64,000 nt of DNA from Longimicrobiales bacterium (GTDB taxonomy: Bacteria; Gemmatimonadota; Gemmatimonadetes; Longimicrobiales; Gaopeijiaceae): contig OZ242008.1 in the NCBI GenBank assembly GCA_965204735.1, positions 904,191 to 968,190 of the forward strand, written 5' to 3'. Each line of letters opens with the position of its first letter. Position 1 is the stretch's first letter. Of the stretch, positions 10,822 to 42,300 are shown piece after piece. Both the position numbers and the translations under genes were made by a program. The notes beneath the pieces were generated by a model that was not told the DNA's origin, searched no databases, and saw only the letters and a program-made list of their open reading frames with translations.

Positions 10822-10888
10822 GGACGGGTCGGGGAACGGCTTGGACGGGTCGGGGAACGGCCCTTGGACGGGTCGGCGAACGGCCCCT
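10822..10888. repeat. Tandem repeat, about 22-24 bp x3 (ggacgggtcggggaacggc + 2-4 nt)
   Basis: There are three near-identical copies, at 10822-10840, 10843-10861 and 10866-10884. They lie in the divergent intergenic region between the MMPL gene and the SnoaL-like gene. Confidence 0.85.
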
Positions 10889-10954
10889 TCGCACGGCCGG
10901 AGCGCGGGCTGGACCGGAGCGCGCCGGGGTGGCTTGCGGGGCCGATTACAATAA

Positions 10955-11497
10955 GTGTATAGGCCGAAGCGATGCGACAGAGGAGGGAGGAGCGGCTTGA
11001 AGACCTTGAGGCTGGCCCTGGCAGGCGTTGCCGTCGCCGTTCTGGCGCCTGCCCTGCTCGGGGCGGCAGCGGTGCTCTCGACCGGAGCGACTCGGCCCGA
11101 CCAGGCCCGCGACCCCGAGTCCCAGGTGCGTGCCGCCGTCGTTGCGGCGCTGGAAGCCTGGACGACCGGCGACTTCGAGAGCCTGGCCGGCCACTACCGC
11201 CCGGACGCAAGAGGGTTCTTCCTCGAAGGAGCGCCTCTGGCGCGCGGCTTCGACGCGACAGCGCTGCAGCTGGCGTGGGACGCGGGGCTGCGCGCCGACA
11301 TGTCGGTCCGCGACCTGGACGTCCAAGTCCATGGAGAGACGGCTGCCTCCGTGGCCTACGTGGACGGGACCCTCGCCATGCCGGGCGGAGAGCCCCCGAT
11401 CGCCGGCACCTGGCGCTACTCCGAGGTGCGGATCGCCTCCGACGGCGCCTGGAAGGTCGTCCAGTACCACTTCTCGCGTCTTGCCGAAACGCCCTGA
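10955..11497 (+). CDS. SnoaL-like/DUF4440 (NTF2-fold) protein with signal peptide
   Basis: It has 'VRAAVVAALEAWTTGDFESLAGHYRPDA...WRYSEVRIASDGAWKVVQYHFS'. The start is uncertain; a TTG near 10997 with RBS ggaggag is an alternative. Confidence 0.6.
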   Translation: MYRPKRCDRGGRSGLKTLRLALAGVAVAVLAPALLGAAAVLSTGATRPDQARDPESQVRAAVVAALEAWTTGDFESLAGHYRPDARGFFLEGAPLARGFDATALQLAWDAGLRADMSVRDLDVQVHGETAASVAYVDGTLAMPGGEPPIAGTWRYSEVRIASDGAWKVVQYHFSRLAETP

Positions 11498-11523
11498 CGC
11501 TACCCCGCCCGACGGACCCGGCC

Positions 11524-13278: not shown

Positions 13279-14339
13279 CGGCGCGGAGCGCGTTCCTGCT
13301 GTCGGCGGTCGCGCTTGGGGCGCCCGGGGCGTCCCTCGGCCAGGAACAGGAACGCGTGTACGTGGCCAACCAGGCGTCGGCCAGCGTCTCGGTCGTCGAC
13401 GCCGCCAGCGGCGAAGTCGTGGAGACGATCGACTTGACCCGCTACGGCTTCGACGGCGACTCCCGGCCCCACCACACGGCGGCAGCCCCCGACGGAAGCC
13501 ACTGGTACGTCTCCTTGATCGGCGGCGGCCACGTCCTGCGCTTCGACGCCGACAACCGGCTCGTGGACCAAGTCCCCTTCGAGACGCCCGGGCTGCTGGC
13601 GGTCGACCGGGACTCGCACCGCCTCTACGTGGGCCGCTCGATGATGGCGGTGAACCCGCCCCGGCGGATCGGCGCAATCGACCGGCGGGACATGTCCATC
13701 GAAGAGGTGGACGTGTTCTTTCCGCGCCCCCACGCGTTGGCCGTCGATCCCCAGGGGGACCGGGTCTACGCGGCTTCGCTGGTCGAGAACCGGATCGCAG
13801 TGCTGAACGGCGCCTCCGGCGAGCTCGAGCTGGTGGACGTGGAAGGACCCGCCCACACCTTCGTGCAGTTCGCCCTCTCGCCCGACCGGAGCACTTTGGT
13901 CGCCACCGCCCAGCTTACCGGCAAGCTGCTGGTCTTTGACGCCTCGGGAAGCCGCCTGGAGCTCGTCCGTCAAGTGGACGTGGGAACCCAGCCGTGGCAT
14001 CCCGTCTTCTCGCCCGACGGCGCCCGCGTCTACTTCGGGGCCAAGGACGACGACGCCGTGGTGGTCGTGGACGCGGGAACGTGGAGCGTGGCGGAACGGA
14101 TCGAGGCGCCGGGGATCGTCGAGCCCCACGGCAGCGCGGTCACCGCGGACGGGCGCTGGCTCTTCGTCTCCAACCGCAACCTGAAGGGGACCTACGCTCC
14201 CCGGAGGGCCGCGGAGAAGAACTCGGACGTGGGGACGGTCGTGAAGATCGACACGCGAACCTTGACGGTGGTCCAAACGATCGAAGTGGGCGCCTATCCG
14301 GCGGGGATCTCCATTGCGCCGACGGGCGGGGGCGGATGA
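13275..14339 (+). CDS. YVTN/YncE-like beta-propeller repeat protein, secreted
   Basis: It has a signal peptide 'MTARSAFLLSAVALGAPGASLG'. Motifs of the form 'RVYVANQASASVSVVD', 'RLYVG' and 'RVYAAS' recur. The ATG overlaps the upstream stop. Confidence 0.7.
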   Translation: MTARSAFLLSAVALGAPGASLGQEQERVYVANQASASVSVVDAASGEVVETIDLTRYGFDGDSRPHHTAAAPDGSHWYVSLIGGGHVLRFDADNRLVDQVPFETPGLLAVDRDSHRLYVGRSMMAVNPPRRIGAIDRRDMSIEEVDVFFPRPHALAVDPQGDRVYAASLVENRIAVLNGASGELELVDVEGPAHTFVQFALSPDRSTLVATAQLTGKLLVFDASGSRLELVRQVDVGTQPWHPVFSPDGARVYFGAKDDDAVVVVDAGTWSVAERIEAPGIVEPHGSAVTADGRWLFVSNRNLKGTYAPRRAAEKNSDVGTVVKIDTRTLTVVQTIEVGAYPAGISIAPTGGGG

Positions 14340-16291
14340 GGCTTCGGCGGCCCCCGGTCGTTCCGCCGTTCGAGCCCAGGCGCGCCCTTCTGCTCGGCGT
14401 CCTCGGCGTGGCGTCCTCGGCGTTGGCGTGCGGACCACCCTCCCCGCCGCCCGGCGCGCCAACTCCCGCGTCTCCCACGTGGGAAAGAGTCGTGTACGAC
14501 ATCGAAGTCGTCGACTCCGCCGGCCGGCGGATCGCCCACCCCTTCCTCGGCGGGCTCAACTTGCCCCGGCCTCAGCTGGCCGACGCCGACGGGGACGGCG
14601 ACCTGGACCTGTTCGTGCAGGAAGCTTCGGATCAGGTCATGTACTTCGAGAACGCGGCGGAGAGGCCGATGACGGGGGCGGGCCGAGGGACGCCCGAGTA
14701 CCGCTGGGTCACCGACGCCTTCGGGGACCTCTCGGTGGGGGAGTGGTACCGCTTCGCCGACGTGGACCTGGACGGCGACCTGGACCTTCTGGCCGAGGAG
14801 CCGTTCAGCCGCATCCGCTTCTACCGCAACGACGGCGGCTCCGGCTCCGCGTCGTACGTGCTCGCGGCCGACACGCTCAGGGACGTGGACGGAGAGGCGA
14901 TATTCTCCGACCGCCAGAACATACCCAACGCCGCCGACATAGACTGCGACGGACGCCTGGACCTGCTGATCGGACGCTTGACGGGGACGATCACCCGCTA
15001 CGAGGCCGAGGGCGCCGACGAGGACGGGGTACCCCGCTTCCGCCACGTCACCGACTCCTTCGAGGGCATCGAGATCGTCGGCGCCCTGCAGGGAAGCCGC
15101 CACGGCGCGAACACGATGGCGCTGGGCGACGTGGACCAGGACGGGGACTACGACCTCTTCTGGGGCGACTTCTTCGAGGCGGGCCTGCTCTACATCGAGA
15201 ACACGGGCACGTGCGCCCGCCCCGTGCTGCGGGGGGCTCCTCGTCCCTTTCCTCTCCGCGCTCCGGTGGCCACTTCCGGCTACAACGCCCCGGCGCTGGG
15301 CGACGCCGACGGGGACGGGGACGTGGACTTGGTCATGGGCGTGCTGGGAGGTGCCTTCAACCCCAACCGCACCACGGTGGACAACCTCCACCTCTTCGAG
15401 CAGGACGACGAGGGCGGCTTCACGGCCGCGACCTCGCGGCTCCTCCCCGCGCTGGACGTGGGCAGCGAGTCCCTGCCCGCGCTCTCGGACCTGGACGGCG
15501 ACGGCGACCTGGACCTCCTGGTCGCGAACAAGATCGAGCCCACGAGCACGCGGACGGGAGCCCTGTACGCGTTCGAGAACACCGGCTCCCGGGAGGCTCC
15601 AGCCTTCGCCGCCCGCGGCGCGGCTCCCGGACTTCCCGAAGCGTACCACTACGCCCCCGCCTTCGGCGACCTGGACGGCGACGGTGACGAAGACCTCCTC
15701 CTGGGCCAGTGGCGGGATCGCGTCGCGTACTACCGGAACGACGGCCCCGGCCCGGGGCTGCTGCCTCGGTGGACCCTGGCGGACTCGGCGGCCGCCGTCC
15801 TCACCCGCGGCCGCAACACCACCCCCGCCCTGGGCGACCTGGACCGCGACGGCGATCTGGACCTCCTGGTCGGCGAGGCGTCCGGCGTCCTCAACTACTA
15901 CCGGAACGAAGGCGGCCCGACGGCGCCACGCTTCCAGCTGGTGACGGACCGCTTTCTGGAGATCGACGTGGGCCGGCGCAGCGTTCCCGCCCTGGTCGAC
16001 CTCGACGGCGACGGCGACCTGGACTTGGCGGTGGGCACGGAGGCTTCCGGCCTGCGGCTCTTCTTGAACGAGGGCGCCGCCGCCGGAGCGCCCAGCCGCA
16101 GCCGCGCTGCTCGCCCTGTCGGCGCTGCCGCCGACCCGCTCTTCGTCGAGACGGCGCCTTTCGGTCCCGACGTGCCGGCGTTCGCGACGCCCGCCTTCGC
16201 CGACATCGACGGCGACGGCGACCTGGACTTGGTCCTCGGCGGAGCGGGAGGCGGGCTCGTCGTGTACCGGCGAGCCGGGGCCGTTCCGTGA
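14336..16291 (+). CDS. FG-GAP/VCBS repeat lipoprotein (CRTAC1/ASPIC-like)
   Basis: It has a lipobox-like 'LLLGVLGVASSALAC'. There are at least 8 repeats of 'GD(L/V)D(G/R)DGDLDL'. The ATG overlaps the upstream TGA at 14336-14339. Confidence 0.8.
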   Translation: MRLRRPPVVPPFEPRRALLLGVLGVASSALACGPPSPPPGAPTPASPTWERVVYDIEVVDSAGRRIAHPFLGGLNLPRPQLADADGDGDLDLFVQEASDQVMYFENAAERPMTGAGRGTPEYRWVTDAFGDLSVGEWYRFADVDLDGDLDLLAEEPFSRIRFYRNDGGSGSASYVLAADTLRDVDGEAIFSDRQNIPNAADIDCDGRLDLLIGRLTGTITRYEAEGADEDGVPRFRHVTDSFEGIEIVGALQGSRHGANTMALGDVDQDGDYDLFWGDFFEAGLLYIENTGTCARPVLRGAPRPFPLRAPVATSGYNAPALGDADGDGDVDLVMGVLGGAFNPNRTTVDNLHLFEQDDEGGFTAATSRLLPALDVGSESLPALSDLDGDGDLDLLVANKIEPTSTRTGALYAFENTGSREAPAFAARGAAPGLPEAYHYAPAFGDLDGDGDEDLLLGQWRDRVAYYRNDGPGPGLLPRWTLADSAAAVLTRGRNTTPALGDLDRDGDLDLLVGEASGVLNYYRNEGGPTAPRFQLVTDRFLEIDVGRRSVPALVDLDGDGDLDLAVGTEASGLRLFLNEGAAAGAPSRSRAARPVGAAADPLFVETAPFGPDVPAFATPAFADIDGDGDLDLVLGGAGGGLVVYRRAGAVP

Positions 16292-27338: not shown

Positions 27339-28148
27339 ATGGGCGACGAGTACTCGATCCTGTCCGAGAATCGAATGAGACCGACAACGCTGTTCCTTGC
27401 GTGGCAGGACAAGCGTGAACGGAGATGGTTTCCGGTGGGCAGGCTGGATGCCGATGGAGGACGTTCGCAGTACGTCTTCCGCTACACGCATGGTGCCGGC
27501 ATCGCGAAGCGAGACAGCGGATTCGCCCCTCTGTACGACTTTCCTCGTCTCGAGGACGTATACGAATCTCGTCGTCTGTTCCCGCTGTTCGAGAATCGAG
27601 TCATGAACCGGGGAAGAAGAAGCTTTCGAGACTACCTCGAGCTCTTGGCCATCGAGAACCCCGACCCGGACCCATTGGAGATCTTGGCGATTGACGGGGG
27701 ACGCCGAATGACCGACAACTTCGAGGTGTTTCCGAAGATCGAGAAGAGCGACGACGGTGAGTTTCGTTGCCGCTTCTTGCTCCATGGCTCCCGGCACGTC
27801 AGCCGTCCGGCGCAGGAGCGGCTGCTCAGGCTGGCGGAAGGAGAACGGCTGCACGTGGCCCTCGAGCTTACCAATCCGGCCATGCCACTCGCGGTCCAGC
27901 TTCAAACCGAAGACTACCACATGATCGGGTGGGCGCCTCGATACTTGGTCGCCGACTTGGCCGAGGCGATGGCTCACGCCCCGACCGAGTACAAGGCCAA
28001 TGTGGTCAGGACCAGCACAGAGGCGCTGTTCAAGCACAGCGTGTTGATCGAACTGAGCGGCTGCTGGCCCGAAGAGCACGAGCCCATGTCGTCCGAGAGC
28101 TATCAGCTGCTGGGCGGGGACGAGGAGGACGCGCTTCCATGGACCTGA
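27339..28148 (+). CDS. HIRAN-like domain protein with uncharacterised N-terminal domain
   Basis: The C-terminal half 'LHGSRHVSRPAQERLLRLAEGERLHVALELTNPAMPLAVQLQTEDYHMIGWAPRYLVADL' fits the HIRAN pattern (G-x-R-x...L..GE.L.L..E..NP.D..A..V...G..IG..PR). GC is lower than in the flanks. Confidence 0.45.
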   Translation: MGDEYSILSENRMRPTTLFLAWQDKRERRWFPVGRLDADGGRSQYVFRYTHGAGIAKRDSGFAPLYDFPRLEDVYESRRLFPLFENRVMNRGRRSFRDYLELLAIENPDPDPLEILAIDGGRRMTDNFEVFPKIEKSDDGEFRCRFLLHGSRHVSRPAQERLLRLAEGERLHVALELTNPAMPLAVQLQTEDYHMIGWAPRYLVADLAEAMAHAPTEYKANVVRTSTEALFKHSVLIELSGCWPEEHEPMSSESYQLLGGDEEDALPWT

Positions 28149-29093: not shown

Positions 29094-32009
29094 TCAGTCA
29101 TCATCGATCAGCCCGAGTTCCCGGAGCGGTTCCAGGACACCGTTTTCCAGCTTGGCCTTGTCGAGCGCACCTTTCGCCTCGACGTTGATGGAGATCCTGT
29201 CGGCCAAGGCCGCGAGGTTGGCGAGAGCGTTCCACGCGCCGTAGAGGGTGTCCCGATCTGCGCTGAACGAAAGAGCGACAGCGTCCGCATCCAGGGTGGC
29301 CGGCGTCGTCGAAGCACTTGGCTCGGGGCTGTCCGGCGTCTCGCGTACCAACCCGGTGCTGAGCTCGGGGCTCGACCAAAGTTCCGCTCCGTCAACAGCT
29401 TCGGGCTGAGCGGGAAGCGCGGCCGGGAGGATCAAGAACCCCGAATCGAGATCGATTTCGTCCTCGGCTACGCCGCGGTCGAAGGCGACTTGGCTCGTGT
29501 CGATTCGATAACGGCCGTCCTCGCCAAGGGTCGGTCGGCCCGTGAAGTAGCCGAAGAAGCTGTTCTCGACGCCACGGGCGATGGCTCTGCGCACCACGTT
29601 GCCGGAAAGCAAGCGCGGGAAGCCAAGGAAGGAGAAGAACCCGGCAACCACCCGGGAGGTCGGAATTCCCGGCTCGGCGGATTCGACTTCTCCCAACCTG
29701 AACAGCTCGACGATCTTCCCCGGTGCCACGTCTTCGAAGACTCTGCGGTGCACCATCGTCAGCAGCTCCATCATGCGATCGTGGATCCGGGCGCGCTTCT
29801 TCTCGTCGAGGGTCGTCTGGAGCGGCCGACCTCTCATGCCGACGGCGTCCAACGACAGCGAACCGCTGTCCGTCGTCGGCAGCCGGATTTCTTCGTACAA
29901 CTTAAGCATCGCGGATTCGACCGCCGTTCTTTCGGTGGCGTCTCGTTCTCTGAGCTGACCCCTCTGCGCATCTGTAAGGTTGTGCTGCCGCCACCTCTGC
30001 AGGACCCGTTCGACGGCCGTCAGGTAGCGGACAGAGCGGCGAAGGCTCTCGACTTGGTCAGCCGACGGCACGGCGAGTCCAAGGCCATTGCGGAATTCGC
30101 GGGTACGGTTCCCGTGGTTCTCACAGAGATCTCTAGCTGTTTCTTTTTGCTCCCCCGTGGACTTGGCTGCGAACTCGAGCGGCAGATACGCGATCAGGAA
30201 CCGAGATTCCTGGTCTGGTACGTCCGCCGATGTGGCCGGCCACACGATCGCCGAGCGCTGGCCCGCAAGCCTCTCTTCGATCAGCGTCTTTATCTTGGTC
30301 CTGATACGGCCCTCGTCCCGGCCCACCGCTTCGGCTTCCTGCTCGACCAGCAACGTGACGTTGGGGTCCCGCTTGAAGCAGTACCGAACGCCGTCGAAGT
30401 GCAGGTAGAGACACTGTTCCTTGAGCTCCTTGAGACAGGCCTGAACGGTGGTGCTGTCGAGGTCTGGACCGACGCCGATGCTCAGCAGGTCGGGCTCGCT
30501 GATCCCGGGCGGCAACAGATCGCCGGCCGTGTCTTCCGAGCGGCGCAGGCCGCCGAAGGAATACATCAGCATGCATGTTGCCAGACGGGTAGCCGAGTGC
30601 TTGCCGGCCTCGGAGGTCACCTCCCGCGCGCGTCGGTCGTCGATCCGGCGGGTGCGAGCGTTTGTGCCGACGAAGTCATGCTCCAGACAAGCCTGAAAAT
30701 CCTCCCGCTGTCCGACCTCTTTGAAGAAGGCGAGGCGTACATCCGCGTCGTGCACGGGAACGTCGCCCGGGCCGAGCAAGAGGCGCGAGCTGCCGGCACG
30801 GTGAGCAGCGCGCAGGCAGGAAGCGAGAAACCGCAGGGCACCGCGAGTTCTCTGGAAATCGGGAATGGCCGCCCAACGCTCCCGCATCACGTCGATCAGG
30901 GCCGGATGGAATGGATAGGAAGACTGGATGCGATTCTGGAGCACCAAGCCGTCCTCTTCCGCCTGCTGCCGTTCCGACTCGCCGTGCGCTCGGGCGCGCC
31001 GCATCTGAGTGACTACGTCTCCGTAAGCCTTGGCGACGCTTCCCGCCACTTCCCGGTCCGGGGCTCCAGCCAGTAGCCGCCGCTGGATCACATTCAGGAT
31101 CTCGTTGCCCTCGACGGGCTCCCGCCGCTGGTCCTTGCGCGCCGCGAGATGCTCCACTGTGCGGAGCAGGCCCGTGTACTCGAGGGATTCGCGGTTGCTC
31201 GACTGCAACGAGTATACGAGCACCGCGTTATCCACGTTGCCGACCGCGACCGTAAGGCGTTTCAGAAATGAAAGCGTCTCGTCCCGAAGGGTGGTCTGCT
31301 CGATGCGCACCCCGCCAGCGCTAATGAGGTACTCCAGAACCTCGTCCAGGAGGATCAGGCTCGGGCCGTGCTTGAGCAGCTCGATGATCTGGTCTCCGCC
31401 TGGAGCAACTCGGCTATTGTCGTGCTCCCGGACGATCTCGTAGCCTTCCCGGCCCGCAAGTGCCCAAGCGATCCACCCCCAGACGGTCTTCGCGACGAAG
31501 CTCTCCTGCGGCACACGCTTTCCGACTCGAGCGTCAAAGAACTGCCCGTCGACGACTGCCACCCGTACTCCCTCCGGCCGCGGAAGTCCCGTTGCCTCCG
31601 GCAGTGCATCCAGGGCGGCCCTTGATCGGGCGCTGTGTAGCAGCGCGGCCAGCGTGTGCGACTTACCTCCGCCGAACGGTGTCAGCAACTTGAGCACGCG
31701 GTTGCCCTGGGAGCCTGCCAGCCGTCCCAGCACGTCCTCAAGCAGTGACTTCAGGCCGCCGGTAAGGTACGATGTCCCGAAGAAGCTGTCGGCGTCCCGG
31801 TAGACGACCGGAACACGTGGCAACGCCGAAGTCGGAACCTCGAGGTCCCTTCCTATCAGGTGGTCGGCCAGTGCCCCCAGGTCGAGTGCGAAGACGTCCT
31901 CCGAGAATTCTTCCGAGAGCACGTCAGGGTGCAGGTCTACGCATTGCAGCCAGGGTCGCCTAGCTACGTCCATGACTGTCGTTCTCCTGTGTTTAGGTTG
32001 GCTGGCCAT
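29094..32009 (-). CDS. DUF499-family P-loop ATPase
   Basis: Walker A is 'LTPFGGGKSHTLAAL' and Walker B is 'SLILLDEVLEY'. At 971 aa its N-terminal layout is typical of DUF499. RBS ggagaggg lies between the PIWI stop and ATG 32009. Confidence 0.75.
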   Translation of the reverse strand: MASQPKHRRTTVMDVARRPWLQCVDLHPDVLSEEFSEDVFALDLGALADHLIGRDLEVPTSALPRVPVVYRDADSFFGTSYLTGGLKSLLEDVLGRLAGSQGNRVLKLLTPFGGGKSHTLAALLHSARSRAALDALPEATGLPRPEGVRVAVVDGQFFDARVGKRVPQESFVAKTVWGWIAWALAGREGYEIVREHDNSRVAPGGDQIIELLKHGPSLILLDEVLEYLISAGGVRIEQTTLRDETLSFLKRLTVAVGNVDNAVLVYSLQSSNRESLEYTGLLRTVEHLAARKDQRREPVEGNEILNVIQRRLLAGAPDREVAGSVAKAYGDVVTQMRRARAHGESERQQAEEDGLVLQNRIQSSYPFHPALIDVMRERWAAIPDFQRTRGALRFLASCLRAAHRAGSSRLLLGPGDVPVHDADVRLAFFKEVGQREDFQACLEHDFVGTNARTRRIDDRRAREVTSEAGKHSATRLATCMLMYSFGGLRRSEDTAGDLLPPGISEPDLLSIGVGPDLDSTTVQACLKELKEQCLYLHFDGVRYCFKRDPNVTLLVEQEAEAVGRDEGRIRTKIKTLIEERLAGQRSAIVWPATSADVPDQESRFLIAYLPLEFAAKSTGEQKETARDLCENHGNRTREFRNGLGLAVPSADQVESLRRSVRYLTAVERVLQRWRQHNLTDAQRGQLRERDATERTAVESAMLKLYEEIRLPTTDSGSLSLDAVGMRGRPLQTTLDEKKRARIHDRMMELLTMVHRRVFEDVAPGKIVELFRLGEVESAEPGIPTSRVVAGFFSFLGFPRLLSGNVVRRAIARGVENSFFGYFTGRPTLGEDGRYRIDTSQVAFDRGVAEDEIDLDSGFLILPAALPAQPEAVDGAELWSSPELSTGLVRETPDSPEPSASTTPATLDADAVALSFSADRDTLYGAWNALANLAALADRISINVEAKGALDKAKLENGVLEPLRELGLIDDD

Positions 32010-32025: not shown

Positions 32026-35000
32026 TTACAGGAACCATGGCGTGTTCTCCAGCGACGGGTGCAGCTCGAACGGTTCCGACTGTCGCAAGAACGCCGCGGT
32101 CAAATAGGCGATGTCCTTGGCGTACTTGAGTGTTATTGGCTCTCCACAAAACGCGTCGGTGGACGCCCAGTTCAGCTTCGTAAGGCTCAACACCTGAAGC
32201 GCCAGCACCCGCAAGTCCGGCCGACTGCCACGGTCGTTCGGTCTCTCAATCCATGCTGCTACCTCCAGTGGTCTTGCCGTCCCCATCATGCGACGAAACG
32301 GATTGTAACCTGTGGTGGACAGGTATAGCTTGTTGGTACCCACCTCAACGTAACTCCCTCGACGAAGGCTCCCATCCGTCTCCGGCCTATCATCGTAAAA
32401 GCGAACGTTGTGATGGGAATTGACCGAGACGAAAGCAAAGGTGCCCTCCGGGCGAACAGTTCGCGCCGATCGAAGAATCGCCTTCCGGTCGGCTCGTGCA
32501 AACTTCGCTGAATACTGGAACACCACGCGGGGAGTCGACGACAGTTGGGAATCTAGCCTCTTCAACACATCCTTGGCCAACTCGGCGAGGCGGAGATGTC
32601 GATCCTCAAAGTCAAAATAAGATGTGTTGCCCCGGTAAAACTCCCATCTTCCATATTGGTTGAACACGCTAGCAAAACCCATGATCCGACGGCCATCTCT
32701 GGACTGCGTGTAGGACAACCCCACAAAAAAATCCGCCTCTGGAATCGCATCCGGCAATACCCACGGCCGGACGCCGCACTTTGCACAAATGTTCAAGGCT
32801 AGATTCAGATCTTTCCAATCTGGATTCTCAAGCGTTGGCGTGTCGACCATCTGACATGGTACGCCTCGTTCCAACAGCAGTCTCTTATTGACGTAGTACG
32901 GTGCCAGGTGGTCGTCTCGAGCATATCCCTCTTCGGGGGTATGGACAAGGAAAATGGATCTAGGATGAAGGTTGGCTCGACTCCTCTGTCGCTGATGCAA
33001 GAGACGTTCAAGTTCTGCATGAATATCATCAACATGGCTCACCGTAGCAATCCCCGAATACCAGAATTTTGTCGCAAACGTTCGTTCGGAGCCGCGATAC
33101 TTGTACCGACCTCCAATCAAACGTTCGATCAGGCCTTCCATTCCTTGACGGACTGCAGTCAGACAAACCGGTACAAGCTCAATCTCCTGTGGGTCATCGC
33201 CATAGGAGCCATACTGTGTGATGCCGGCCCGGACATCCGGTGACAGCTGGCGCTGCCGAAACTCCACTTCCGGCTCTGGGAGTCGCCGAACGGTCAGTTC
33301 CTTTTCCGAAGGTCGCAGTCGTTCGGAAAGTCGAATCGGGTTGGTAGCGATATCGACGTCAAGATCGCAACATCGCAAAGGAAACAACTTGTCCGACAGA
33401 TATTTCACGCTTGCCAGAATCTTTTGAGCCCTCTCCCTAGCGGAACCCGGTCTCGTAACCAAGCTATGCTCTCGAATCGCAGCGGCAAGATCGAACGACG
33501 GTTCCTCCTTGTGCAGCATAGACTTCAACATCTCCACAGTGCAAATGGGAATGACGTCACTGATAGGGATAGTTTCTACCGTGCCGGTGTCAAGGAATCG
33601 TACTTCCGCAAACTCATCGTTAAATCCAGACAGATGTCCCCTGCGCCACTGTCCATTGTTTGCTATGCAACGATGGCCATCAAGTCTGGCTCGTGCAAAA
33701 TGCTGCTTCACAACCGTGAGATTTCTTACGTTGAGAGCAACGCATCTGTAATCGATACACAAATAGAAGCGTTGACCATACTGCCGGACCTGAAATTCGT
33801 ATGCCGGATAGAGTCGCACAATAGACCTCACCCCAACCGGTGTGCCGATCTCAGTGCGCCTCATGTGTGCAAGTATTCTGCTGAATCCATCTCGGTGTAT
33901 GAACCATCCATTTCCTTCTAACGCATCGCGAAGCGTTCGCACAAGCTGCCCATAACGTGATCCAAATACCTCATACCCTACCACGTTGTCCTGTTGCCGA
34001 AATCTCAACAGAAACAAATTGCTGAATTCCGTTGCGTTATCGTTGTTTGCCGCCGCTAGGAGCGCGGCTTCGCGCTCTTCCGCCCTGTTCTCAATCTGGA
34101 TCAATGTCTCGTTCGAAAGGAGACGATATGAGGGAGCCGGCAACCCGAGGGTCTCCATCGCCGTAACCATCTGCTTCGTGCCCTCGCTAATGGCCTGCAC
34201 ATAGGCCACACCACTCGGATCTCTCATTAGCTTCAGCCATTCTAGAAGCTTAGTATTCCTAGGCATCGAATCAAGTATGACGTCTGCCAACGAAAAACGC
34301 GGTGGTGGATCAGTGTCTCGCTGAATTATCCGGCCTGGATTCTTCACCACGAATGCATCCGTGTACGCCTCGCATTCAATCGGCACCCCGGTTCGATAGT
34401 CCCTATGCGCTAAGGCGTTCACGAGTGCTTCGTCAATGACGGTATAAGGAAATTCGGGCTCTTCGACGAAGCCACCGGTTGGCCGTCGCTTTTGATAGCG
34501 CTTAAAGAATGCGGACTCTCTGAAGAATGTCCTCGCCTCCCGGATCTGTTTCGTAACCGGACCTGTGAATTTTTGATCGAATGTCGGGAGACCACGTCTG
34601 GCATGGTCGTTGACCACCACTCCAAACCGCATTAGGCGAATGTGAGCTGCCGGAAGGACACGTTGCGGATTTGATCCAAAGAACAGAAGTCCGGCATATG
34701 TAAACCAATAGTCGTCATCGCGGCGAACCAATGCACCTGCCTCATAGAGCAGTCGTTCATCCGAGAAGCGTCTGGTTGCATCGGGGGAAAACACCTTGCG
34801 AAATTCTTTCAGAACGTCATCCGAAAGATCTGCAGGATCGTAGGGGCAGCAGAACGCGTTCTCGAAGTCGGTAAGGTTTTTTCTGTCCCGAAGCCGATCA
34901 CGCATCGCCTGCGTGACCAGGACGTTTTGAGGTCCGCGTCGCTCCCAAGCCTTCGGCCTAGCCCGAAGCGTCTCGCAAATGGCATTGGTCGCATAGGGGG

Positions 35001-35511
35001 CAAATAACAGACAAATAGTGTTGCTTTGGTCGGAATCATCGCGACATTCGTAAAGTCTAGCTTCGACGGCCTGATTGTGAAGGAGGCTCCCAATGTCAGT
35101 GAGGCTGTTTTTCTGACCTTCTGTCAGGTGGTTGACGCCTGCGACGTTGCCGTTGGACTCAATTCCGATCACCAGCAACCCACCTCTAACGTTGCTGTTG
35201 GCGAAGGCCGAAATGGTCTCGGTGATTCCGTCCCGGAGCTTCTTCAGTTGGTTTGTGAGCTCCCTGGGAGGGCTCCCCTTGCGGCCCGCAGCCTTACGAT
35301 CGAAGTGCTGGCCCTCGAAATCGTCATCCGAGGACTGGGTCAAGAAGCCCCAGTGACTTGCGGGATCGTCGTAGACTGCCCGTGGGGAGGGTTCCATCAG
35401 CACTTCCTCTTCGTGGGACGCCCAAGACGGCAGAGCCGGAATCGCCCAAAGGTTGCGGGCTTGGCCGTGCGTTTCCACCACCGGCGGTTCGCCGCTCTCA
35501 TCGGTCGTCAT
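32026..35511 (-). CDS. Schlafen/AlbA_2 + HATPase_c_4 N-terminal module fused to a catalytically inactive prokaryotic Argonaute (MID-PIWI)
   Basis: AlbA_2 shows as 'FEGQHFDRK...ISAFANSNVRGGLLVIGIESNGNVAGV' and HATPase_c_4 as 'IDEALVNALAHRDYRTGVPIECEAYTDAFVVKNPGRI'. The MID pocket has 'YYVNK...CQMV...ICAKCG'. PIWI shows as 'LNLALNICAKCGVRPWVL', 'FFVGLSYTQ' (no catalytic Asp) and 'EPITLKYAKDIAYL'. The start is uncertain: 35586, 35511 or 35397, the last with RBS gaggaag. Confidence 0.8.
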   Translation of the reverse strand: MTTDESGEPPVVETHGQARNLWAIPALPSWASHEEEVLMEPSPRAVYDDPASHWGFLTQSSDDDFEGQHFDRKAAGRKGSPPRELTNQLKKLRDGITETISAFANSNVRGGLLVIGIESNGNVAGVNHLTEGQKNSLTDIGSLLHNQAVEARLYECRDDSDQSNTICLLFAPYATNAICETLRARPKAWERRGPQNVLVTQAMRDRLRDRKNLTDFENAFCCPYDPADLSDDVLKEFRKVFSPDATRRFSDERLLYEAGALVRRDDDYWFTYAGLLFFGSNPQRVLPAAHIRLMRFGVVVNDHARRGLPTFDQKFTGPVTKQIREARTFFRESAFFKRYQKRRPTGGFVEEPEFPYTVIDEALVNALAHRDYRTGVPIECEAYTDAFVVKNPGRIIQRDTDPPPRFSLADVILDSMPRNTKLLEWLKLMRDPSGVAYVQAISEGTKQMVTAMETLGLPAPSYRLLSNETLIQIENRAEEREAALLAAANNDNATEFSNLFLLRFRQQDNVVGYEVFGSRYGQLVRTLRDALEGNGWFIHRDGFSRILAHMRRTEIGTPVGVRSIVRLYPAYEFQVRQYGQRFYLCIDYRCVALNVRNLTVVKQHFARARLDGHRCIANNGQWRRGHLSGFNDEFAEVRFLDTGTVETIPISDVIPICTVEMLKSMLHKEEPSFDLAAAIREHSLVTRPGSARERAQKILASVKYLSDKLFPLRCCDLDVDIATNPIRLSERLRPSEKELTVRRLPEPEVEFRQRQLSPDVRAGITQYGSYGDDPQEIELVPVCLTAVRQGMEGLIERLIGGRYKYRGSERTFATKFWYSGIATVSHVDDIHAELERLLHQRQRSRANLHPRSIFLVHTPEEGYARDDHLAPYYVNKRLLLERGVPCQMVDTPTLENPDWKDLNLALNICAKCGVRPWVLPDAIPEADFFVGLSYTQSRDGRRIMGFASVFNQYGRWEFYRGNTSYFDFEDRHLRLAELAKDVLKRLDSQLSSTPRVVFQYSAKFARADRKAILRSARTVRPEGTFAFVSVNSHHNVRFYDDRPETDGSLRRGSYVEVGTNKLYLSTTGYNPFRRMMGTARPLEVAAWIERPNDRGSRPDLRVLALQVLSLTKLNWASTDAFCGEPITLKYAKDIAYLTAAFLRQSEPFELHPSLENTPWFL

Positions 35512-38314
35512 CCTCCAGGGCGAGTTCCGTCTGTCCGAAGATAGGGCCTTCGCTCTCTCGATCATAAGCGGCCCCTTCAACGACACTTCGCCAATTGGCG
35601 TTCAGCTTGGAGAGGGCGCGCAACTCGGTGGTCGTGGTCGCGTCCTGCGCCTCGGGGCGTGAAAGCACTGGCGCACAGAGTGCCTGAGTGACCAACCGGA
35701 GCTGCTCCTGGCTCGGTCGCGCCGACTTCAGGAACTCCCGGACCTGGATCGGCCGGTGGTCGAGCAACCAGAGCAGCCGGTGGATGACGTCGATTAGCGG
35801 GGCCTGTCGGCCGTTCGTACTGATGCCCAGCCCGTCGTCGCTACCGCGCTCCTCGAAGGTCCGGACGCGGAATTTGCTCCTGGACTTCTCGACCAGGCAC
35901 GGAGGGGGGCCGGAGAGCCCCTGTGGACCGTCGATCTCGATGCCCTGCGGATAGCAGAACACGTACGCGTCGCCGGCCTGGATGAGGGATTCACGATAGG
36001 TAAACCTCCATAGGACGTAGAAGCGCGTCTCTGGGTCCACGGAGCCGACGGCTGCTCCACGCAAACCGAAGATCTCGTCAAGCATGACATCAAGTACGAC
36101 GCCCTCGACGTCGCGGAGGTAGAGTTCGGCGGGCACGATTTCGCCGTTGGCGTACTCGACCTTGGCGAACCGCGTGTAGGCACGCAGGCCCGCGCCGACC
36201 GCAGCCATAAGGAGGTCTGCACCTCCAATTCCCTTGCCTCCCGCCCATAGGGTCGTCACGCGTTCGCGTGCGATGTGGAGAAGCTCCGGCTTTACCTGTG
36301 CCTCGTACCGCCCGGTCTCGGTCGTTTCGCGGCGGCGAGCGACGAAAAAGATGCTGTCGGAAAGCGCGGCGGCACCGAGCGCGTTGACCCTTCCTCGAGA
36401 CTCCGTCTGCACCGGCCATGCCTCGGTGACCGTGAGCCCCGCCCCAACTAGCGCACGAATCAATGTGGCCCATCCCTCCGTCGTTCGGTGGGCGTAGACG
36501 CAGACCAGTGGGGCACCCGGCTTCAGGACGCGACGGGCTTCTGCGAACGAGCGGCGCATCATGTCTTGATAGTGCATGTTCGCCTTCTTTGCGTCCCCGC
36601 CGTGCTCGCTCGGCTGTGCGACCGCCTCGCGCCGCTTGGGCGGCACAGGCAACGTGAAGTGCTCGGGGTAGAGATCACCGACGATGCGCTTCAGCCATAC
36701 GTAGAAGAACGCGGACAGATCCGCGTAGTATATGCTGCTATAGTACGGCGGGTCGGTGACCACCGCGTCGAAGGTCTCGTCGTTGTAGAACAGCTTTTCC
36801 GCGTTGCCGCGCGCAACAACCGATGGCTGGCCGACCTTGGCGAGCTCTCGAATACAGTACGCTTCCCGGTCCAGCGCGAAGGGGAGGCAGCCCTGGGTGT
36901 GCGCTAACCCATTGATCTCTGAGAAATCGTAAATCATCTTCAGGGCTTGCCGATCACCAATAGCTCCTATCGTCCTCTGCACTCTGGGCTCCCACCGAGA
37001 GAACTTGTTGAATGTGACGACGAAACGGCCGAACGCCATCGCGAAATAGGTCGACAGCGCTCGTGCCCGGTCCTCGGCCATACCCTCCTTCAGCATTTCG
37101 GCGTGGGCCTGTCGAATGTTTTTGATCAGGGTCAACAGGACCAGTAGCTGTCGAGGCGTGAATAGTTCGCGATACGTATTCACTCCATAGTTAGGAAGTT
37201 GGTCACCAAGTTTCCCTTGAAGCATACCACCAGGAGGCTCACAACCGAGTTCCCCCTCAAGCTTCTCCAAACGCTGCTCTATCTCGTCCGCCGGCAACTC
37301 TACCGTGACATCCGGGGGCAAGTATACTTTGGTTCGCCTTTTCCTCGATTTACCTTCTGGCGGCAACGAAACCACTACGGCAGCAAGCGATTCTTTCATC
37401 CTGTCGACTGTCGCCATTTCCTTGACGTGATCGGCAGGGGCAGGTGTATTGCATGCGACGCAGACCGCTTGTCCCGCGCCAGTCTGCGCCTCTTGTTGGG
37501 AGACTTCTCGGATGGACGCACCGGAAACGATGTCCCAGCAAAGTCGGTTGCCATCTTCGATTTGGGGAACAGCGGCAACGGCTCCGTTCTTCTTGCGTAG
37601 CCAAGCTTGGCGAACGAGCGGCACCGACGTGCCGCATCCCGGCCGACGACAGGGCACAGTGCGCGCCCAGATGCAAGCGATCAGGGTTGCTTCGCGCGAC
37701 GGAGTGGGTGAATCTGATGTCCGGTTTCCGAAGAGGGTGATCTGGGAAGCGACCGCGTCCGATTCAGGTATCCGGACGTCTGGGTAAAGGTCGCCAACAT
37801 CCTTCTTCACGCGTTCGAGGACAACCCGACCCCAGTGTTCGAAGTCGTCGGCCAACTTCGGTCCGAACGTCTGTGGATACGCTAGCGTACATAGTTCGAT
37901 CAGGTGGGCTACCGGGTTGTAGTCGAGCGCGTGGCTCTCGCAACCGAGACGGGCGGCCTCGAGCGGAATCGCACCTCCGCCCGCAAATGGGTCCAGCACC
38001 TTCGGCGTCCGGCCACCGTGCGCCTCCAGGATGTGTCTGCGAGCCTTCTTGACGACTTCCGGATCCGGCTTGAACGCAGCGAGGTTGGCAACGAAAGACG
38101 CGGCTTCCCTACGCTCGTCGTCCGATTCCGGCGCAGCGACTAGGGCGGCGTAGACCGCGGCGCGCGATGCGGTGATCGGACGGCGAGCGGGCCAGTAGTG
38201 GATCATCTCCACGTATCGCCGGGGATGCAGCTTCTCGTGGGATGCGATGGCGTTGAGCGCGTCAAGAGGAAGGTAGTCCTCGATCAGTCGGCGGTCATCC
38301 ATGATCCATGTCAT
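35498..38314 (-). CDS. DUF1156-type DNA methyltransferase (DPPY motif, Zn-ribbon insert)
   Basis: It has the DUF1156 N-terminus 'RLIEDYLPLDALNAIASHEKLH...IHYWPARRP', motif I 'VLDPFAGGGAIPLEAARLG' and motif IV 'VVTDPPYYSS'. Cys pairs 'CRRPGC' and 'CVAC' are present. The start is at 38314 or 38302, and both overlap the helicase 3' end. Confidence 0.8.
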   Translation of the reverse strand: MTWIMDDRRLIEDYLPLDALNAIASHEKLHPRRYVEMIHYWPARRPITASRAAVYAALVAAPESDDERREAASFVANLAAFKPDPEVVKKARRHILEAHGGRTPKVLDPFAGGGAIPLEAARLGCESHALDYNPVAHLIELCTLAYPQTFGPKLADDFEHWGRVVLERVKKDVGDLYPDVRIPESDAVASQITLFGNRTSDSPTPSREATLIACIWARTVPCRRPGCGTSVPLVRQAWLRKKNGAVAAVPQIEDGNRLCWDIVSGASIREVSQQEAQTGAGQAVCVACNTPAPADHVKEMATVDRMKESLAAVVVSLPPEGKSRKRRTKVYLPPDVTVELPADEIEQRLEKLEGELGCEPPGGMLQGKLGDQLPNYGVNTYRELFTPRQLLVLLTLIKNIRQAHAEMLKEGMAEDRARALSTYFAMAFGRFVVTFNKFSRWEPRVQRTIGAIGDRQALKMIYDFSEINGLAHTQGCLPFALDREAYCIRELAKVGQPSVVARGNAEKLFYNDETFDAVVTDPPYYSSIYYADLSAFFYVWLKRIVGDLYPEHFTLPVPPKRREAVAQPSEHGGDAKKANMHYQDMMRRSFAEARRVLKPGAPLVCVYAHRTTEGWATLIRALVGAGLTVTEAWPVQTESRGRVNALGAAALSDSIFFVARRRETTETGRYEAQVKPELLHIARERVTTLWAGGKGIGGADLLMAAVGAGLRAYTRFAKVEYANGEIVPAELYLRDVEGVVLDVMLDEIFGLRGAAVGSVDPETRFYVLWRFTYRESLIQAGDAYVFCYPQGIEIDGPQGLSGPPPCLVEKSRSKFRVRTFEERGSDDGLGISTNGRQAPLIDVIHRLLWLLDHRPIQVREFLKSARPSQEQLRLVTQALCAPVLSRPEAQDATTTTELRALSKLNANWRSVVEGAAYDRESEGPIFGQTELALEDDDR

Positions 38315-41300
38315 CCGGTCTCCCGCAAACCTCTGCCTGATCCACCGTCTCCTGATCGAAAGCGGCCTGTTCCACAGCCCTTGCCGGGAGATCATAGTAT
38401 CGTGCGGCCACGACCTCCTTCTTGGCGTAGTCCAAGTGCTTGGCGGGGTTCTGGATCATCAGCGGAGTCGGGTCCGGGTTGTCCAACGGATCCCAGACGA
38501 CATAAAGCCAGTAGGTGTCGGCGAGCTGTTGCGCCTTGTACCACTCGTTGGTGGTCAGCCGGACGGGCTGGCCGCGTTGTCGGCCCTTGACCTCGATGCG
38601 GCGCACACCGGTCACAGGGTCCCGGTAGCCCGTCTGTGGGTCCGGCGGCGCCAGGCTTCGAACGTCGAAGCCGATCTTCTGGTGCCCGACCCGCTCGCAC
38701 TCGCGGCCCTGGGCCTCCTCATAGGCGACGACAACGTCCTCCGCGGCAACCTCGACCCGCTGCGTCAACGCCGGGTCGGGTTCCTCTCTGAATACGAGGG
38801 CGCGCTCCGTATCCGTGTCGGGAGGCAGTACCAAGCAGCTCGCTATGTGCCGCACGGGACCGTGCCGGGCGATGCGAAGCCGCTCAATACCGGCCAGGCG
38901 CTCCTCCTGTGTGCGTTGCAGATCGGCAAGATCCTGTTCCGCACGCTGACGTGCCAGCGTTACTTCCGGCTCTTTTGGCTCCCGGGCCCGTAGCCCCATC
39001 ACCCGATCCTGCGAGGCACGGGCACGAGCGGCGAAAGACTTCTCGAGATAGTCGCGCGCTACTTCCGCATAGTGGCCGCGTTCGGCCTGGGCGTCTCGCC
39101 GCCGCTGCATCTGGATCGTCGCCTTGACATAGTCGCCGACGAGGCCTTGGTCGATCCCGGGCAAGGTCACGGACGGACTCGGATGGGCAGGCAGATCGAT
39201 GAGCGCGTCCGGCGGCACTGTGCTGAAACGATCCGCAACGGCGATATCTTCGCCGCCCTCCTCCCGCACGGCCACCAGCTCGGAATGTATCGTCGTCGCC
39301 TCGCCCTTGGTGTTCTGGCCCTGTACTGGAATCTCGTAGAAATGGAGACGGTAGGGAGATTTCCCGTGCGGGTCCACGTACACGGCCGTCTGGCCCGCAA
39401 GCCGCTCGCCAAGGCTGTCTTGCAACCTCTCGTCCACGGCGGCGTAGAGCGGATGTCCGGGACCGACGAGTACGGCGTCAAGGTGCCGATCCTGCTCCAG
39501 GTGCTCCTTGTAGAAGGTCAGCTTGCGGTAGCTCGCCTCGGGCTTCCCATGGCGCCGGACCGCGGCAAGGCGCTCGGAGCGGAGCTCGGCGCGCACGTGC
39601 TCGATCCGCCAGAGTCCGTCCGCTCTTGGCTCTGTCCGCAGGCCCACCGCCCTGGCAGCGTTCAAGAAGTGGGATTCGACATAGCGAGGCATGAGCCGCC
39701 GCTCCTCCGTTTCCAAGTTTGCCCGTGCGAAGGACGAAAAATCTACGTGGGCGCGGGCCAATGCAATCCCAGTCGCGTCTTCGTACAGATCGAGCTGCTT
39801 CGGATCGATCCGCTCAATCGCATCGAGATAGTCGTCGAGGCGGCGCGGCTCATAGGCCACCTCCCGAAGCATTTCCGGCAGGTTGACCTTGTTCAGGGAG
39901 AGCACTTCGCCGACGACGTCGAACACTCGATCGCCGAGCGCATCCCGCATCCGGTTCAACTTGCTCAGCAGGCGCTCCAGAATACGTCCTTCGATGACTG
40001 GCTGACCGTCCTGCGACGAAGTGGCGACGAAATTGAAGGCGTACACATCGCGAGACTGCCCGATGCGGTGGATGCGGCCAAGTCGCTGTTCGAGACGGGT
40101 TGGGTTCCAAGGCAGATCGTAGTTGACCATCAGGTGACAGAACTGGAGGTTGATGCCCTCTCCGGCGGCCTCCGTCGCCACGCAGATCTGGCGGCTAGTT
40201 CGGAAATCTTCTTGAGCCTGCTTGCGCTCGTGCGGGTTCATCCCGCCGTGAATTTCGCATGTCGAATACCCCCAGGACTCGAGATGGCTCCTCAGGTGGT
40301 TCAGCGTGTCCCGGTGCTCGGTGAAGATAAGGAGCTTACCGCGTCCGTCCTTCAGTTCGTCGAATTCCGTTCGTTCCAGGCACTCGCGCAATGCGACGAG
40401 CTTGGAATCGAGGCCGCCTTCGCGCAATCGGCCTACGCTCGTCGCGAGGTCCCGTAGCGCCGCGACCTCGGCCCGTAGCTGACCCAAGGCGAGGGCCGCT
40501 GTAGTCTCGTCGATGAGACAATCGCGAGATGCGTCGTCGAGGTCGTCTTCGTCCTGTTCTACGTCGGCAACTTGACCTGATGCCTGCGCGAGTCGTCTCG
40601 CCCGCTGGGCAGGGGGCAAGTTGTCGAGTTCGTCAACCAATTCTCTTAGCCGTGTTCGACGACGAATCAGCGATTCGTGAATTGCGCGGGTAGAGCTGGC
40701 CAAGCGACGTTGAAATACCGTGCGCACGAGAGCGACGCTGTTCTTTCGCCTTCCGGTCGTTTGTGGAAGGAACTCATTGATGTATGCCGTTACCGCCTTG
40801 TAAACCGCGTACTCTTGTTCGCTGAGCGCAAAGCTGACCGTGTGTACGTGGCGGTCCGCAAACAACCGACGCCCATGCAGGTCCTTGAGGTCTTCCTTGA
40901 GCCGTCGAAGCGACCACGGGCAATCTTGGCCGAGTTGTAGTACATCGCGTCGAACATGAGCGGCTTCTTCGCCTACGCGATGGGGTTCGGGGAACAGGTC
41001 CCGGTCGATAAGCCGGATGAAGTGTGCGAACCGGTCATCGTCACCGTGATGAGGCGTGGCTGTCAAGAGCAGCAGGTGGTCGCAATGTTCGGAGAGCCGC
41101 TCGGCGAGCTGGTAGCGCTTCGTGCGCTCAATCCCGTCCCCGCGACCGGTGGAGTACTTGGTACGAGCACTGCACTTGTGGGCTTCGTCGATGATGACGA
41201 GGTCCCAGTGCTGCCGCCACACGCGCTCCCGCACCTCGTCCCGCTTGGCGTAGTCGATGGAAGACACGATCTGCGTCTCTCGCTCCCATAGGTTTAGGAA

Positions 41301-41930: not shown

Positions 41931-42300
41931 TTGGGCGTGTGATTGGCCAGGAGACAATCCAAGACAGCACGTCAAGATACTACTAGGGAACACGCCGGAT
42001 GTCCACCGGGGCCTGGAGAGAGCGGCCTACCACGGCAGAAACGGTCATGTTTGGTCGCATATCCCTATATGATCCAGGGTCCTGAACGGGCTGCTGAGGT
42101 AGGCGACGGCGACGAAGTTCTCGGTGGACGCGGTACCGCGGGCCCGGAGTTTCGCCGCCTAGACCAGCGAGTTCATGGCCTCCAGTATCCCGTTTCTGAT
42201 CCGCGAGCGGAACCACGCTACGCGATGCCCCTCGTCCGGCCGGTCCCCCACAGCCCCGTCCGCCCCGGGCGGAACCCGGAGACCCGGACGCAGGACCGCC

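Follow-up and report, generated by a model that had tools for sequence, protein, structure and literature searches.

Fusions of Schlafen (SLFN; PF04326) domains to the N termini of several prokaryotic Argonautes (pAgos) of the long-B type were described by Ryazansky et al. 2018 (PMC6299218), and the 2023 release of PADLOC already holds a full-length hidden Markov model (HMM) for a protein of this type (PDLC02394). In a recent preprint (Kuzmenko et al., bioRxiv 10.64898/2026.05.29.728809, 30 May 2026), the SLFN-pAgos are defined as a monophyletic long-B group of 78 proteins of 1071-1187 aa from 16 bacterial phyla, in which a SLFN domain and a GHKL ATPase ('Schlatpase') precede PAZ-MID-PIWI and the catalytic tetrad is lacking. 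According to the same preprint, RzAgo uses 18-23 nt RNA guides with a 5'-A to recognise DNA targets, forms helical filaments which are induced by the guide and disassembled by the target, and is driven into tetramers by ATP via the GHKL residues E314 and N318, while its cleavage of tRNA requires an E(x)4(D/E)xK motif, of which D32 is essential, and a SAFAN box. RzAgo alone guards a heterologous host from phage; D32A and E314A variants are defective in this, and D72A is hyperactive. No conserved partner genes were found in the surroundings of SLFN-pAgos; restriction-modification (R-M), toxin-antitoxin and BREX modules are frequent there, and two clades of SLFN domains as well as an exchange of modules between families were reported. 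Here, we analysed a stretch of 64,000 nucleotides from a Longimicrobiales bacterium (assembly GCA_965204735.1, contig OZ242008.1, positions 904,191 to 968,190; hereafter the window), in which one reverse-strand gene, judged by its sequence, encodes a member of this already described family, with an architecture that is not new, and lies inside an operon of the Hma type.

The open reading frame (ORF) in question (32026..35586, reverse strand) comprises 1186 open codons and a single terminal stop. A previous reading, made from the letters of the DNA without database searches (the sequence-only reading), had described it as a Schlafen/AlbA_2 and a HATPase_c_4 domain ahead of an Argonaute, and this arrangement was recovered by Pfam and by an end-to-end match in PADLOC. 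SLFN_AlbA_2 (PF04326) is matched at residues 92-222 of the long ORF with an E-value (E) of 8.7e-9, over the gathering score; HATPase_c_4 (PF13749), which is annotated in many homologues of the window protein, scores just under its cutoff at long-ORF residues 400-493 (22.0 bits versus 26 bits); and the PADLOC pAgo model PDLC02394 aligns over its positions 2-1121 of 1121 to long-ORF residues 66-1186 with 1547 bits. About 20 further PADLOC pAgo models match the last 300-450 residues, and phmmer searches against PDB sequences matched short pAgos, AaAgo and RsAgo over long-ORF residues 886-1173. The Pfam Piwi model gave no match at E 0.01 on the window protein, yet it is annotated in many homologues; homology to Piwi was therefore set by PADLOC, by profiles against PDB sequences and by the fold search. 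Thus, a single uninterrupted gene encodes a Schlafen/AlbA_2 domain, a GHKL ATPase and an Argonaute core of the long-B type. That two genes might have been joined by an assembly error or a frameshift is ruled out by full-length homologues, over 100 in number and equally long, which come from many phyla and align end to end.

The extent of the protein, in contrast, had to be revised. The ORF is open over its whole length as had been stated, but translation almost certainly does not start at its outermost codon, GTG 35586, as the sequence-only reading had assumed, but 63 codons further downstream at ATG 35397 (M64 of the long ORF), the extension being probably untranslated and the protein having 1123 rather than 1186 aa. 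Homologues of 1119-1127 aa align from this residue, the PADLOC match likewise begins there, a Shine-Dalgarno motif (GAGGAAG) sits 6 nt upstream, and the 63 extra codons would reach back into the 3' end of the methylase gene upstream; GTG 35586 was dropped as a start on these grounds. Unless the long ORF is named, residue numbers refer to the 1123-aa protein and are converted to long-ORF numbering by adding 63.

In the Argonaute part, motif homology was assessed with a profile of 22 family members searched against PDB sequences, which matched EcAgo, RsAgo and AaAgo, and the conservation of columns was counted over 69 family members. PYYVNK of the window protein is aligned to PYIHTK of RsAgo, presumably residues Y463 and K467 (the chain index agrees to within one residue), the Q of PCQMV to the position of RsAgo Q478, and the K of AKCG to K506. 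The resulting pocket residues, Y834, K838, Q849 and K873, do not vary in any of the 69 members, and the Y-K-Q-K pocket that the sequence-only reading had noted is accordingly positionally homologous to that of RsAgo. At the catalytic positions, AaAgo D502 (GID) is aligned to the Ser of GLS, D571 (RDG) to the Ser of YSA, and D683 (YSD) to the Lys of KYAKD. Position 895 is S in 66/69 and A in 3/69 members, position 963 is S in 68/69 and A in 1/69, and position 1094, the fourth of the tetrad and a K in the window protein, is G in 56/69, so that the first and third tetrad positions are S or A in all 69 members and never acidic. An alternative alignment does not restore the tetrad, as D889 (in ADFFVG), the one invariant Asp in the vicinity, pairs with a non-catalytic Asp of AaAgo. 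These column counts show that the pocket has been kept and the tetrad lost throughout the family and not merely in the copy of the window. By these alignments, the MID 5'-end pocket is intact and the DEDX tetrad of PIWI is absent, as had been claimed, and the combination of an inactive PIWI with a YK-type MID pocket is that of the long-B pAgos in the sense of Ryazansky et al. 2018. The coordinates given by the sequence-only reading hold exactly for NALAHRDY (34396-34419) and for the serine codon at the first catalytic position (TCC, 32713-32715), and nearly so for YYVNK..AKCG (32773-32898 versus 32779-32898) and for the SAFAN stretch (35134-35214 versus 35161-35214).

The N-terminal modules carry the motifs that were described for RzAgo. 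E(x)4(D/E)xK is present as FEGQHFDRK, with E28, D33 and K35, and the SAFAN box is located at residues 63-67; E28, K35, S63 and F65 are invariant in 69/69 members, and so are E323 and N327 in the Bergerat motif DEALVN of the GHKL region. One exception is residue 71 (R134 in long-ORF numbering), the neighbour on the N-terminal side of the invariant GG which follows the SAFAN box, where the window protein has Arg (codon AGA, 35185-35187, reverse strand) and the other members have Glu (63), Asp (3), Lys (1) or Thr (1). Residue 71 is located 38 residues from D33, which is also the distance between E214 and D252 in SLFN11, and because of this equal spacing position 71 is most likely the counterpart of RzAgo D72 and SLFN11 D252. 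In the preprint, D72A of RzAgo and changes of SLFN11 D252 raise activity, and D72A strengthens defence; Arg71 therefore need not inactivate the protein. A side observation concerns the similarity to the closest relative, locus L096 (2420-5791): over the first 200 alignment columns, corresponding to the Schlafen part (34798-35397, reverse strand), the two proteins are 68-70% identical, compared to 82-96% over columns 201-1127, and in the first 200 columns L096 is no nearer to the window protein than more distant relatives. This pattern suggests recombination within the Schlafen module, or a replacement of the module.

Structural modeling gave a consistent picture. AlphaFold2, supplied with the 69-sequence alignment, modeled the 1123-aa protein with a mean predicted local distance difference test (pLDDT) of 80 and a predicted template modeling score (pTM) of 0.69, and a Foldseek search of the PDB with the whole model placed the RsAgo ternary complexes 5awh and 6d8p on top (E ~4e-32 to 8e-32; ~800 columns; template modeling score 0.64-0.65 normalised to RsAgo), followed by AaAgo, PIWI-clade and human Argonautes. 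As full-length RsAgo is matched by the entire core, the part upstream of MID is predicted to be the L1/PAZ/L2 of a long pAgo and not APAZ, and a short-pAgo/APAZ reading of residues 500-800 was rejected on this fold match. In the model, the ~290 residues between GHKL and MID form a long helix (475-495) and, over residues 498-617, a part rich in beta-strands with a small barrel in it. The stretch from the end of GHKL to the MID tyrosine is ~80 residues shorter than the one before RsAgo Y463, which would fit the structure of RzAgo without a canonical N domain. A weak Pfam Tudor match in this part (33538-33663, reverse strand; long-ORF residues 642-683; E 2.6e-4, under cutoff), which comprises five short beta-strands in the model, was rejected as a separate domain and is probably the small beta-barrel of the PAZ-like region. 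For residues 1-450, which were also modeled separately (pLDDT 88), the best match was 3lmm, DIP2311 of Corynebacterium diphtheriae (E 1.2e-17, 454 columns), which we take to be an AlbA_2 plus HATPase_c_4 protein of the COG2865 type, followed by SLFN13, SLFN12, SLFN14, SLFN11 and SLFN5 (E 2e-5 to 1e-3); histidine-kinase catalytic (CA) domains were weak fold matches to the same part. The fold match to RsAgo and the states of pocket and tetrad thus point to a guide-binding, non-slicing, long-B-like Argonaute, as the sequence-only reading had proposed.

The protein also fits the published family in its numbering and its relatives. D33, E323, N327, Y834 and Y1092 of the window protein run parallel in number to D32, E314, N318, Y828 and Y1086 of RzAgo, the offsets being +1, +9, +9, +6 and +6, and therefore as expected of homologues that differ by few indels. 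A protein search returned 309 homologues at E <= 1e-5, the top 120 of them with identities of 52% or more and, with few exceptions, of full length, and a scan of one genome per species yielded 94 relatives, 80 of which were kept. These relatives belong to Gammaproteobacteria, Alphaproteobacteria, Acidobacteriota, Planctomycetota, Bacteroidota/Rhodothermales, Cyanobacteria, Poribacteria, Chloroflexota and Gemmatimonadota, among others, and include one metagenome-assembled genome of Nitrososphaera; Cyanobacteria, Bacteroidota and Poribacteria are phyla that the preprint names for SLFN-pAgos. With 309 matches, and with relatives in 94 species-representative stretches, the family by far exceeds the 78 proteins of the preprint. 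The sequence-only reading correctly identified an immune protein of three modules and its inactive slicer site, but it had not recognised such a fusion from earlier work, although it is found in Ryazansky 2018 (PMC6299218), in PADLOC 2023 and in the preprint; no new class is at stake, because catalogues have listed the architecture since 2018 and its mechanism was explained in 2026.

Taking together the architecture, motif states, fold matches, family membership by sequence and genomic-context distribution observed here, we consider it likely that the gene encodes one protein in which a Schlafen nuclease and a GHKL ATPase are joined to a long-B Argonaute without catalytic activity, which acts in the manner of RzAgo and which travels as autonomous cargo in an insertion hotspot between hmaB and hmaC. 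By homology to RzAgo, the type of guide and target, the switch between filament and tetramer and the cleavage of tRNA might be envisaged as follows. The MID pocket would anchor the 5' end of small RNA guides, and the guide-loaded protein would be kept in an inactive polymer, from which it would be freed when the guide pairs with complementary DNA of an invader, the PIWI domain sensing this target without cutting it. ATP binding by the GHKL domains may then build tetramers, in which paired Schlafen domains would form an active RNase that cuts tRNA, leading to a halt of translation and an aborted infection. The pAgo probably acts autonomously and, likely co-transcribed with Hma, would add a second, abortive-infection layer to it. 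Autonomy is suggested by the defence of a heterologous host by RzAgo alone, by the lack of a shared flanking family, by the presence of Hma in only 2/80 relatives and by a closest relative that resides outside Hma.

The neighbours of the gene (Table 1) are an SNF2-nuclease, a DUF1156 methylase and a DUF499 ATPase in one operon, which by sequence is an Hma system (Payne et al. 2021), since renamed the type-1 DUF499-centred BREX-related (BR) system (PMC12839542). The NCBIfam antiphage models for DUF499 and DUF1156 were matched under their equivalog cutoffs. The start of HmaB is uncertain, as its longest ORF overlaps HmaA. The PADLOC match of HmaA begins at residue 78, and the 5' end of the HmaA ORF holds one of just two sigma-70-like sites in the 14-kb region (41977-42005, reverse strand); since this site overlaps GTG 41993, the real start of HmaA is probably further downstream. 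The pAgo gene sits between HmaB and HmaC: the HmaB stop precedes its start by 100 nt, the HmaC ATG follows its stop after 16 nt, and the GGAGA ribosome-binding site of HmaC abuts its stop codon, while no promoter-like or terminator-like sites were found in the two intergenic gaps flanking it. Due to the tight gaps, the abutting ribosome-binding site and the lack of a terminator-like site, co-transcription of the pAgo with the Hma operon is likely.

Table 1. Positions (in window coordinates) of the pAgo gene, its predicted domains and the neighbouring Hma genes.
Feature	Position	Strand	Description and basis
SLFN-pAgo CDS	32026..35397	-	1123 aa + stop; start inferred from homologue lengths, PADLOC model onset and Shine-Dalgarno motif
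Schlafen/AlbA_2 nuclease domain	34918..35397	-	residues ~1-160; Pfam PF04326, motifs, Foldseek
GHKL / HATPase_c_4 ATPase region	34048..34917	-	residues ~161-450; PF13749 sub-cutoff, invariant motif, 3lmm by sequence and fold
L1 / PAZ-like / L2 region	33193..34047	-	residues ~451-735; AlphaFold2 secondary structure, Foldseek; borders approximate, inferred
MID domain	32773..33192	-	residues ~736-875; pocket Y834, K838, Q849, K873; RsAgo alignment
PIWI domain	32026..32772	-	residues ~876-1123; without DEDX tetrad; S895, S963, K1094 at Asp positions; AaAgo alignment
HmaA	38295..41993	-	SNF2 helicase + C-terminal NOV_C (PD-(D/E)XK-type) nuclease; first operon gene; Pfam SNF2-rel_dom, Helicase_C, NOV_C; PADLOC E 5.3e-189
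HmaB	35498..38395	-	DUF1156 N6-type DNA methyltransferase; Pfam DUF1156, N6_N4_Mtase; PADLOC E 8.6e-108; NCBIfam DUF1156_antiphage
HmaC	29094..32009	-	DUF499 AAA+ ATPase; Pfam DUF499 E 2e-30; PADLOC E 1.1e-95

The GC content at third codon positions is 0.58 in the pAgo gene, 0.72-0.77 in the Hma genes and 0.85-0.93 in the surrounding host genes, and this nested composition was counted as a sign of a foreign origin of the pAgo. In every relative locus looked at (L001, L002, L096, L098, L100-L102), the GC content of the pAgo is likewise below that of its neighbours, whatever the context. No tRNA was found in the window, and no integrase was matched among the flanking ORFs scanned at the borders of the 13-kb cassette, the matches there being of the housekeeping type or absent. 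A forward-strand ORF (27339-28148) with a weak match to HIRAN (E 1.5e-4, under cutoff) is located ~950 nt beyond HmaC and shares part of its length with the longest ORF of the SDR gene.

Comparison with the loci of the relatives bears on whether Hma is a partner or a landing site. A tblastn search with the three Hma proteins gave matches in just two of the 80 loci (L001, L002), leaving 78/80 relatives without Hma nearby, and all-against-all clustering of the flanking ORFs revealed no conserved partner, no family occurring in more than 9 of 81 loci. A metagenome scan with HmaC identified 15 related Hma operons (48-67% identity), and a SLFN-pAgo was present in 0/15. HmaB abuts HmaC in 6/15 of these, and the cargo found at the hmaB-hmaC junction of related operons comprises an MNT+HEPN pair (L088, L091), an AAA_21 ATPase with DUF4276 (L092), an AbiGi-like gene (L082) and an unknown 304-aa gene (L085, L086). 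The hma operon has been described as an insertion hotspot for defence genes, in which 66.5% of the systems bear insertions and an AAA_21 pair separates hmaB from hmaC throughout Halomonas (Liu et al. 2024). Within the subclade of 72-84% identity to the window protein, the order HmaB-pAgo-HmaC occurs in 7/10 loci (the window, L001, L002, L098, L099, L100, L102); the remaining three, among them the closest relative (L096; P0002, 84% identity) as well as L101 and L006, are not embedded in Hma. We regard the pAgo as an autonomous cargo that entered the hotspot in the ancestor of this subclade and was then co-inherited.

Further observations were made on the Hma operons of relatives. The hmaA-hmaB junction, which is empty in the window, also bears cargo: a complete Gabija pair (GajA, GajB) in L100 (1197-5053) and L102 (1257-5128), PIN/FitA toxin-antitoxin pairs in L098 (4894-6859) and L099 (634-1278), and an OLD-family nuclease in L087 (5164-6996); in L001 (921-4894) a Gabija pair lies upstream of hmaB, and no HmaA was found within the 10-kb flank of this locus. 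In L087 and L093, Hma operons without a SLFN-pAgo, a different, short Class I pAgo (54-1181, forward strand) is located directly upstream of HmaA; it matches PADLOC pAgo_I with E 2e-119, but the match sets in only at position 128 of the 455 in the model, so that its 5' part seems to be missing, and it is 27% identical to the PIWI of the window protein. The DUF1156 gene is split into several ORFs in L099 (4196-7727) and L102 (5125-7939), and in L099 the DUF499 gene (11565-14491) is split as well, with the pAgo intact in both, which might reflect a decaying Hma around a pAgo that is still under selection, or else frameshift errors in long-read assemblies.

SLFN-pAgos were also found co-directionally inside two further types of methylase-bearing operons, which together with Hma account for ~18 of 81 loci. 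In one set (L004, L005, L009, L011, L053, L057), a 950-aa type-III-like methyltransferase is located directly upstream and a UvrD/NERD-like helicase downstream; the order in L004, L005, L011 and L053 (~3500-15500), and partially in L009 and L057, is HEC-05-like ATPase, 950-aa methyltransferase, SLFN-pAgo and helicase, the pAgo starting 8-60 nt after the methylase gene, and this set was matched to no named system. In at least 9 loci the operon is of the type I R-M kind, with HsdM upstream, or HsdS and HsdR downstream, of the SLFN-pAgo, one such case having been shown for Poribacteria (bioRxiv 10.64898/2026.05.29.728809). [quoted passage not shown] The occurrence in methylase operons fits both a hotspot cargo and a layered defence.

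Several points weigh against the proposed RzAgo-like, autonomous protein. Its orthology to RzAgo rests on shared architecture, motifs, numbering offsets and the statement of monophyly in the preprint; the HATPase_c_4 score remains under the Pfam cutoff; the third acidic residue of the nuclease, E/D in 66/69 members, is Arg, and a positive charge in the metal site could act differently; and the order HmaB-pAgo-HmaC kept in 7/10 subclade loci leaves room for some functional coupling. The last point leads to the possibility that the SLFN-pAgo is functionally integrated with Hma, either as an abortive backup when restriction fails or with Hma shaping guides or targets through methylation or helicase-nuclease processing. 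The seven loci stem from different genomes and differ in the additional cargo at other places of the operon, the genes are closely spaced with no terminator detected, SLFN-pAgos occur in type I R-M operons and in those with a type-III-like methyltransferase as well, and the Schlafen RNases linked to BREX/BR offer a precedent for a backup role (PMC12839542). However, almost all species-level relatives, and within the subclade the closest relative and two others, do without Hma, related Hma operons have an empty slot or unrelated cargo, RzAgo is sufficient alone and the preprint found no conserved partner; moreover, the slot is a general insertion hotspot, and the co-inheritance may therefore mean linkage only. 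Thus, we regard an integration with Hma as unlikely. The effector function, which the sequence-only reading had assigned to both the fused Schlafen/ATPase module and the operon partners, is supported for the fused module by its 3lmm/SLFN folds and motifs, but on the same evidence not supported for the partners. It might further be speculated that SLFN-pAgos are selectively recruited into three unrelated kinds of methylase-bearing operons as a coupled two-layer system and that Arg71 is a tuned, more active variant which is tolerated owing to this coupling, in which case the abortive response of Argonaute and Schlafen would either be triggered when the restriction layer fails or be fed by the DNA processing of that layer; this appears distinctly unlikely to us.

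Two other explanations question the protein itself rather than its partners. Arg71 might disable metal binding and leave a guide binder without effector, the window copy being nuclease-impaired or decaying. The deviation from E/D would agree with this, as would the fragmented Hma neighbours in L099 and L102, which indicate that such cassettes can decay; yet the ORF is intact over 1123 codons, all remaining motif residues are kept, an identical protein (P0001) was assembled independently from a different data source, and the equivalent changes in RzAgo and SLFN11 raise activity, which makes an impaired copy very improbable. Similarly, the differing similarity pattern of the N-terminal 200 aa, together with the two SLFN clades and the module exchange reported in the preprint, might be taken to indicate an independent, convergent fusion of a Schlafen-ATPase to an Argonaute outside the published clade, and hence a new architecture. 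We find this barely credible, as length, domain order, diagnostic motifs, the phyla of the relatives and the numbering offsets all fit the published clade, a full-length PADLOC HMM exists, and the group is described as monophyletic with 1071-1187 aa. An autonomous SLFN-pAgo in the hmaB-hmaC hotspot is therefore retained as the best explanation as a whole. Its context joins two published facts, namely that SLFN-pAgos are found near R-M and BREX-like modules and that hma is an insertion hotspot, and it shows that an Argonaute can be cargo of the hmaB-hmaC slot, stably inherited in one proteobacterial subclade. The window copy may in addition be viewed as a natural variant, with a rare Arg where mutation of RzAgo gives hyperactivity.

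Compared with known systems, the operon shares HmaA, HmaB and HmaC with the Hma system (Payne 2021; Liu 2024; PMC12839542), in which insertion of defence genes is a published feature, but it differs in its cargo: that reported so far includes Septu, PARIS, Ppl, AAA_21 pairs and GmrSD-like genes, and an Argonaute is not mentioned in the papers searched, nor in Liu et al. 2024. With short pAgos such as SPARTA and SPARSA, several of which are among the top sequence matches of its PIWI part, the window protein shares an inactive MID-PIWI sensor that is tied to an abortive-infection effector; in contrast, short pAgos are without L1/PAZ and need a separate or fused APAZ, whereas the window pAgo aligns as a long pAgo, and no APAZ protein was detected at its locus, where Pfam and PADLOC identify the neighbours as Hma proteins. 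The best profile and fold matches are the long-B pAgos RsAgo (5awh, 6d8p) and EcAgo (23wq), with the same YKQK pocket and inactive PIWI, and by analogy to them an RNA guide and a DNA target may be assumed; RsAgo-type proteins, however, are not fused to an effector, in other long-B systems the effector is a protein of its own, and, judged from the structure of RzAgo, the SLFN-pAgo core is without a canonical N domain. Its N-terminal 450 aa have the two-domain fold of the stand-alone Schlafen-GHKL proteins ('Schlatpase', COG2865; DIP2311) and of the Schlafen RNases linked to BREX/BR (PMC12839542), the genes of which, like that of the window, commonly reside within BREX and DUF499 (Hma/BR) operons; these stand-alone proteins end in a winged helix-turn-helix and not in an Argonaute core, which implies a different sensor. 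From RzAgo of Runella zeae, the window protein differs in having Arg instead of Asp/Glu as the third acidic nuclease residue and in being encoded between the methylase and ATPase genes of Hma, a context that the preprint does not mention. In all other respects compared it resembles RzAgo and the SLFN-pAgos most closely, with the same domain order of SLFN (AlbA_2), GHKL ATPase and L1/PAZ/MID/PIWI, a length of 1123 aa within the range of 1071-1187, the same E(x)4(D/E)xK, SAFAN, GHKL E...N and MID Y/K motifs, the same absence of the PIWI tetrad, and a location among defence genes including BREX-like and R-M modules.

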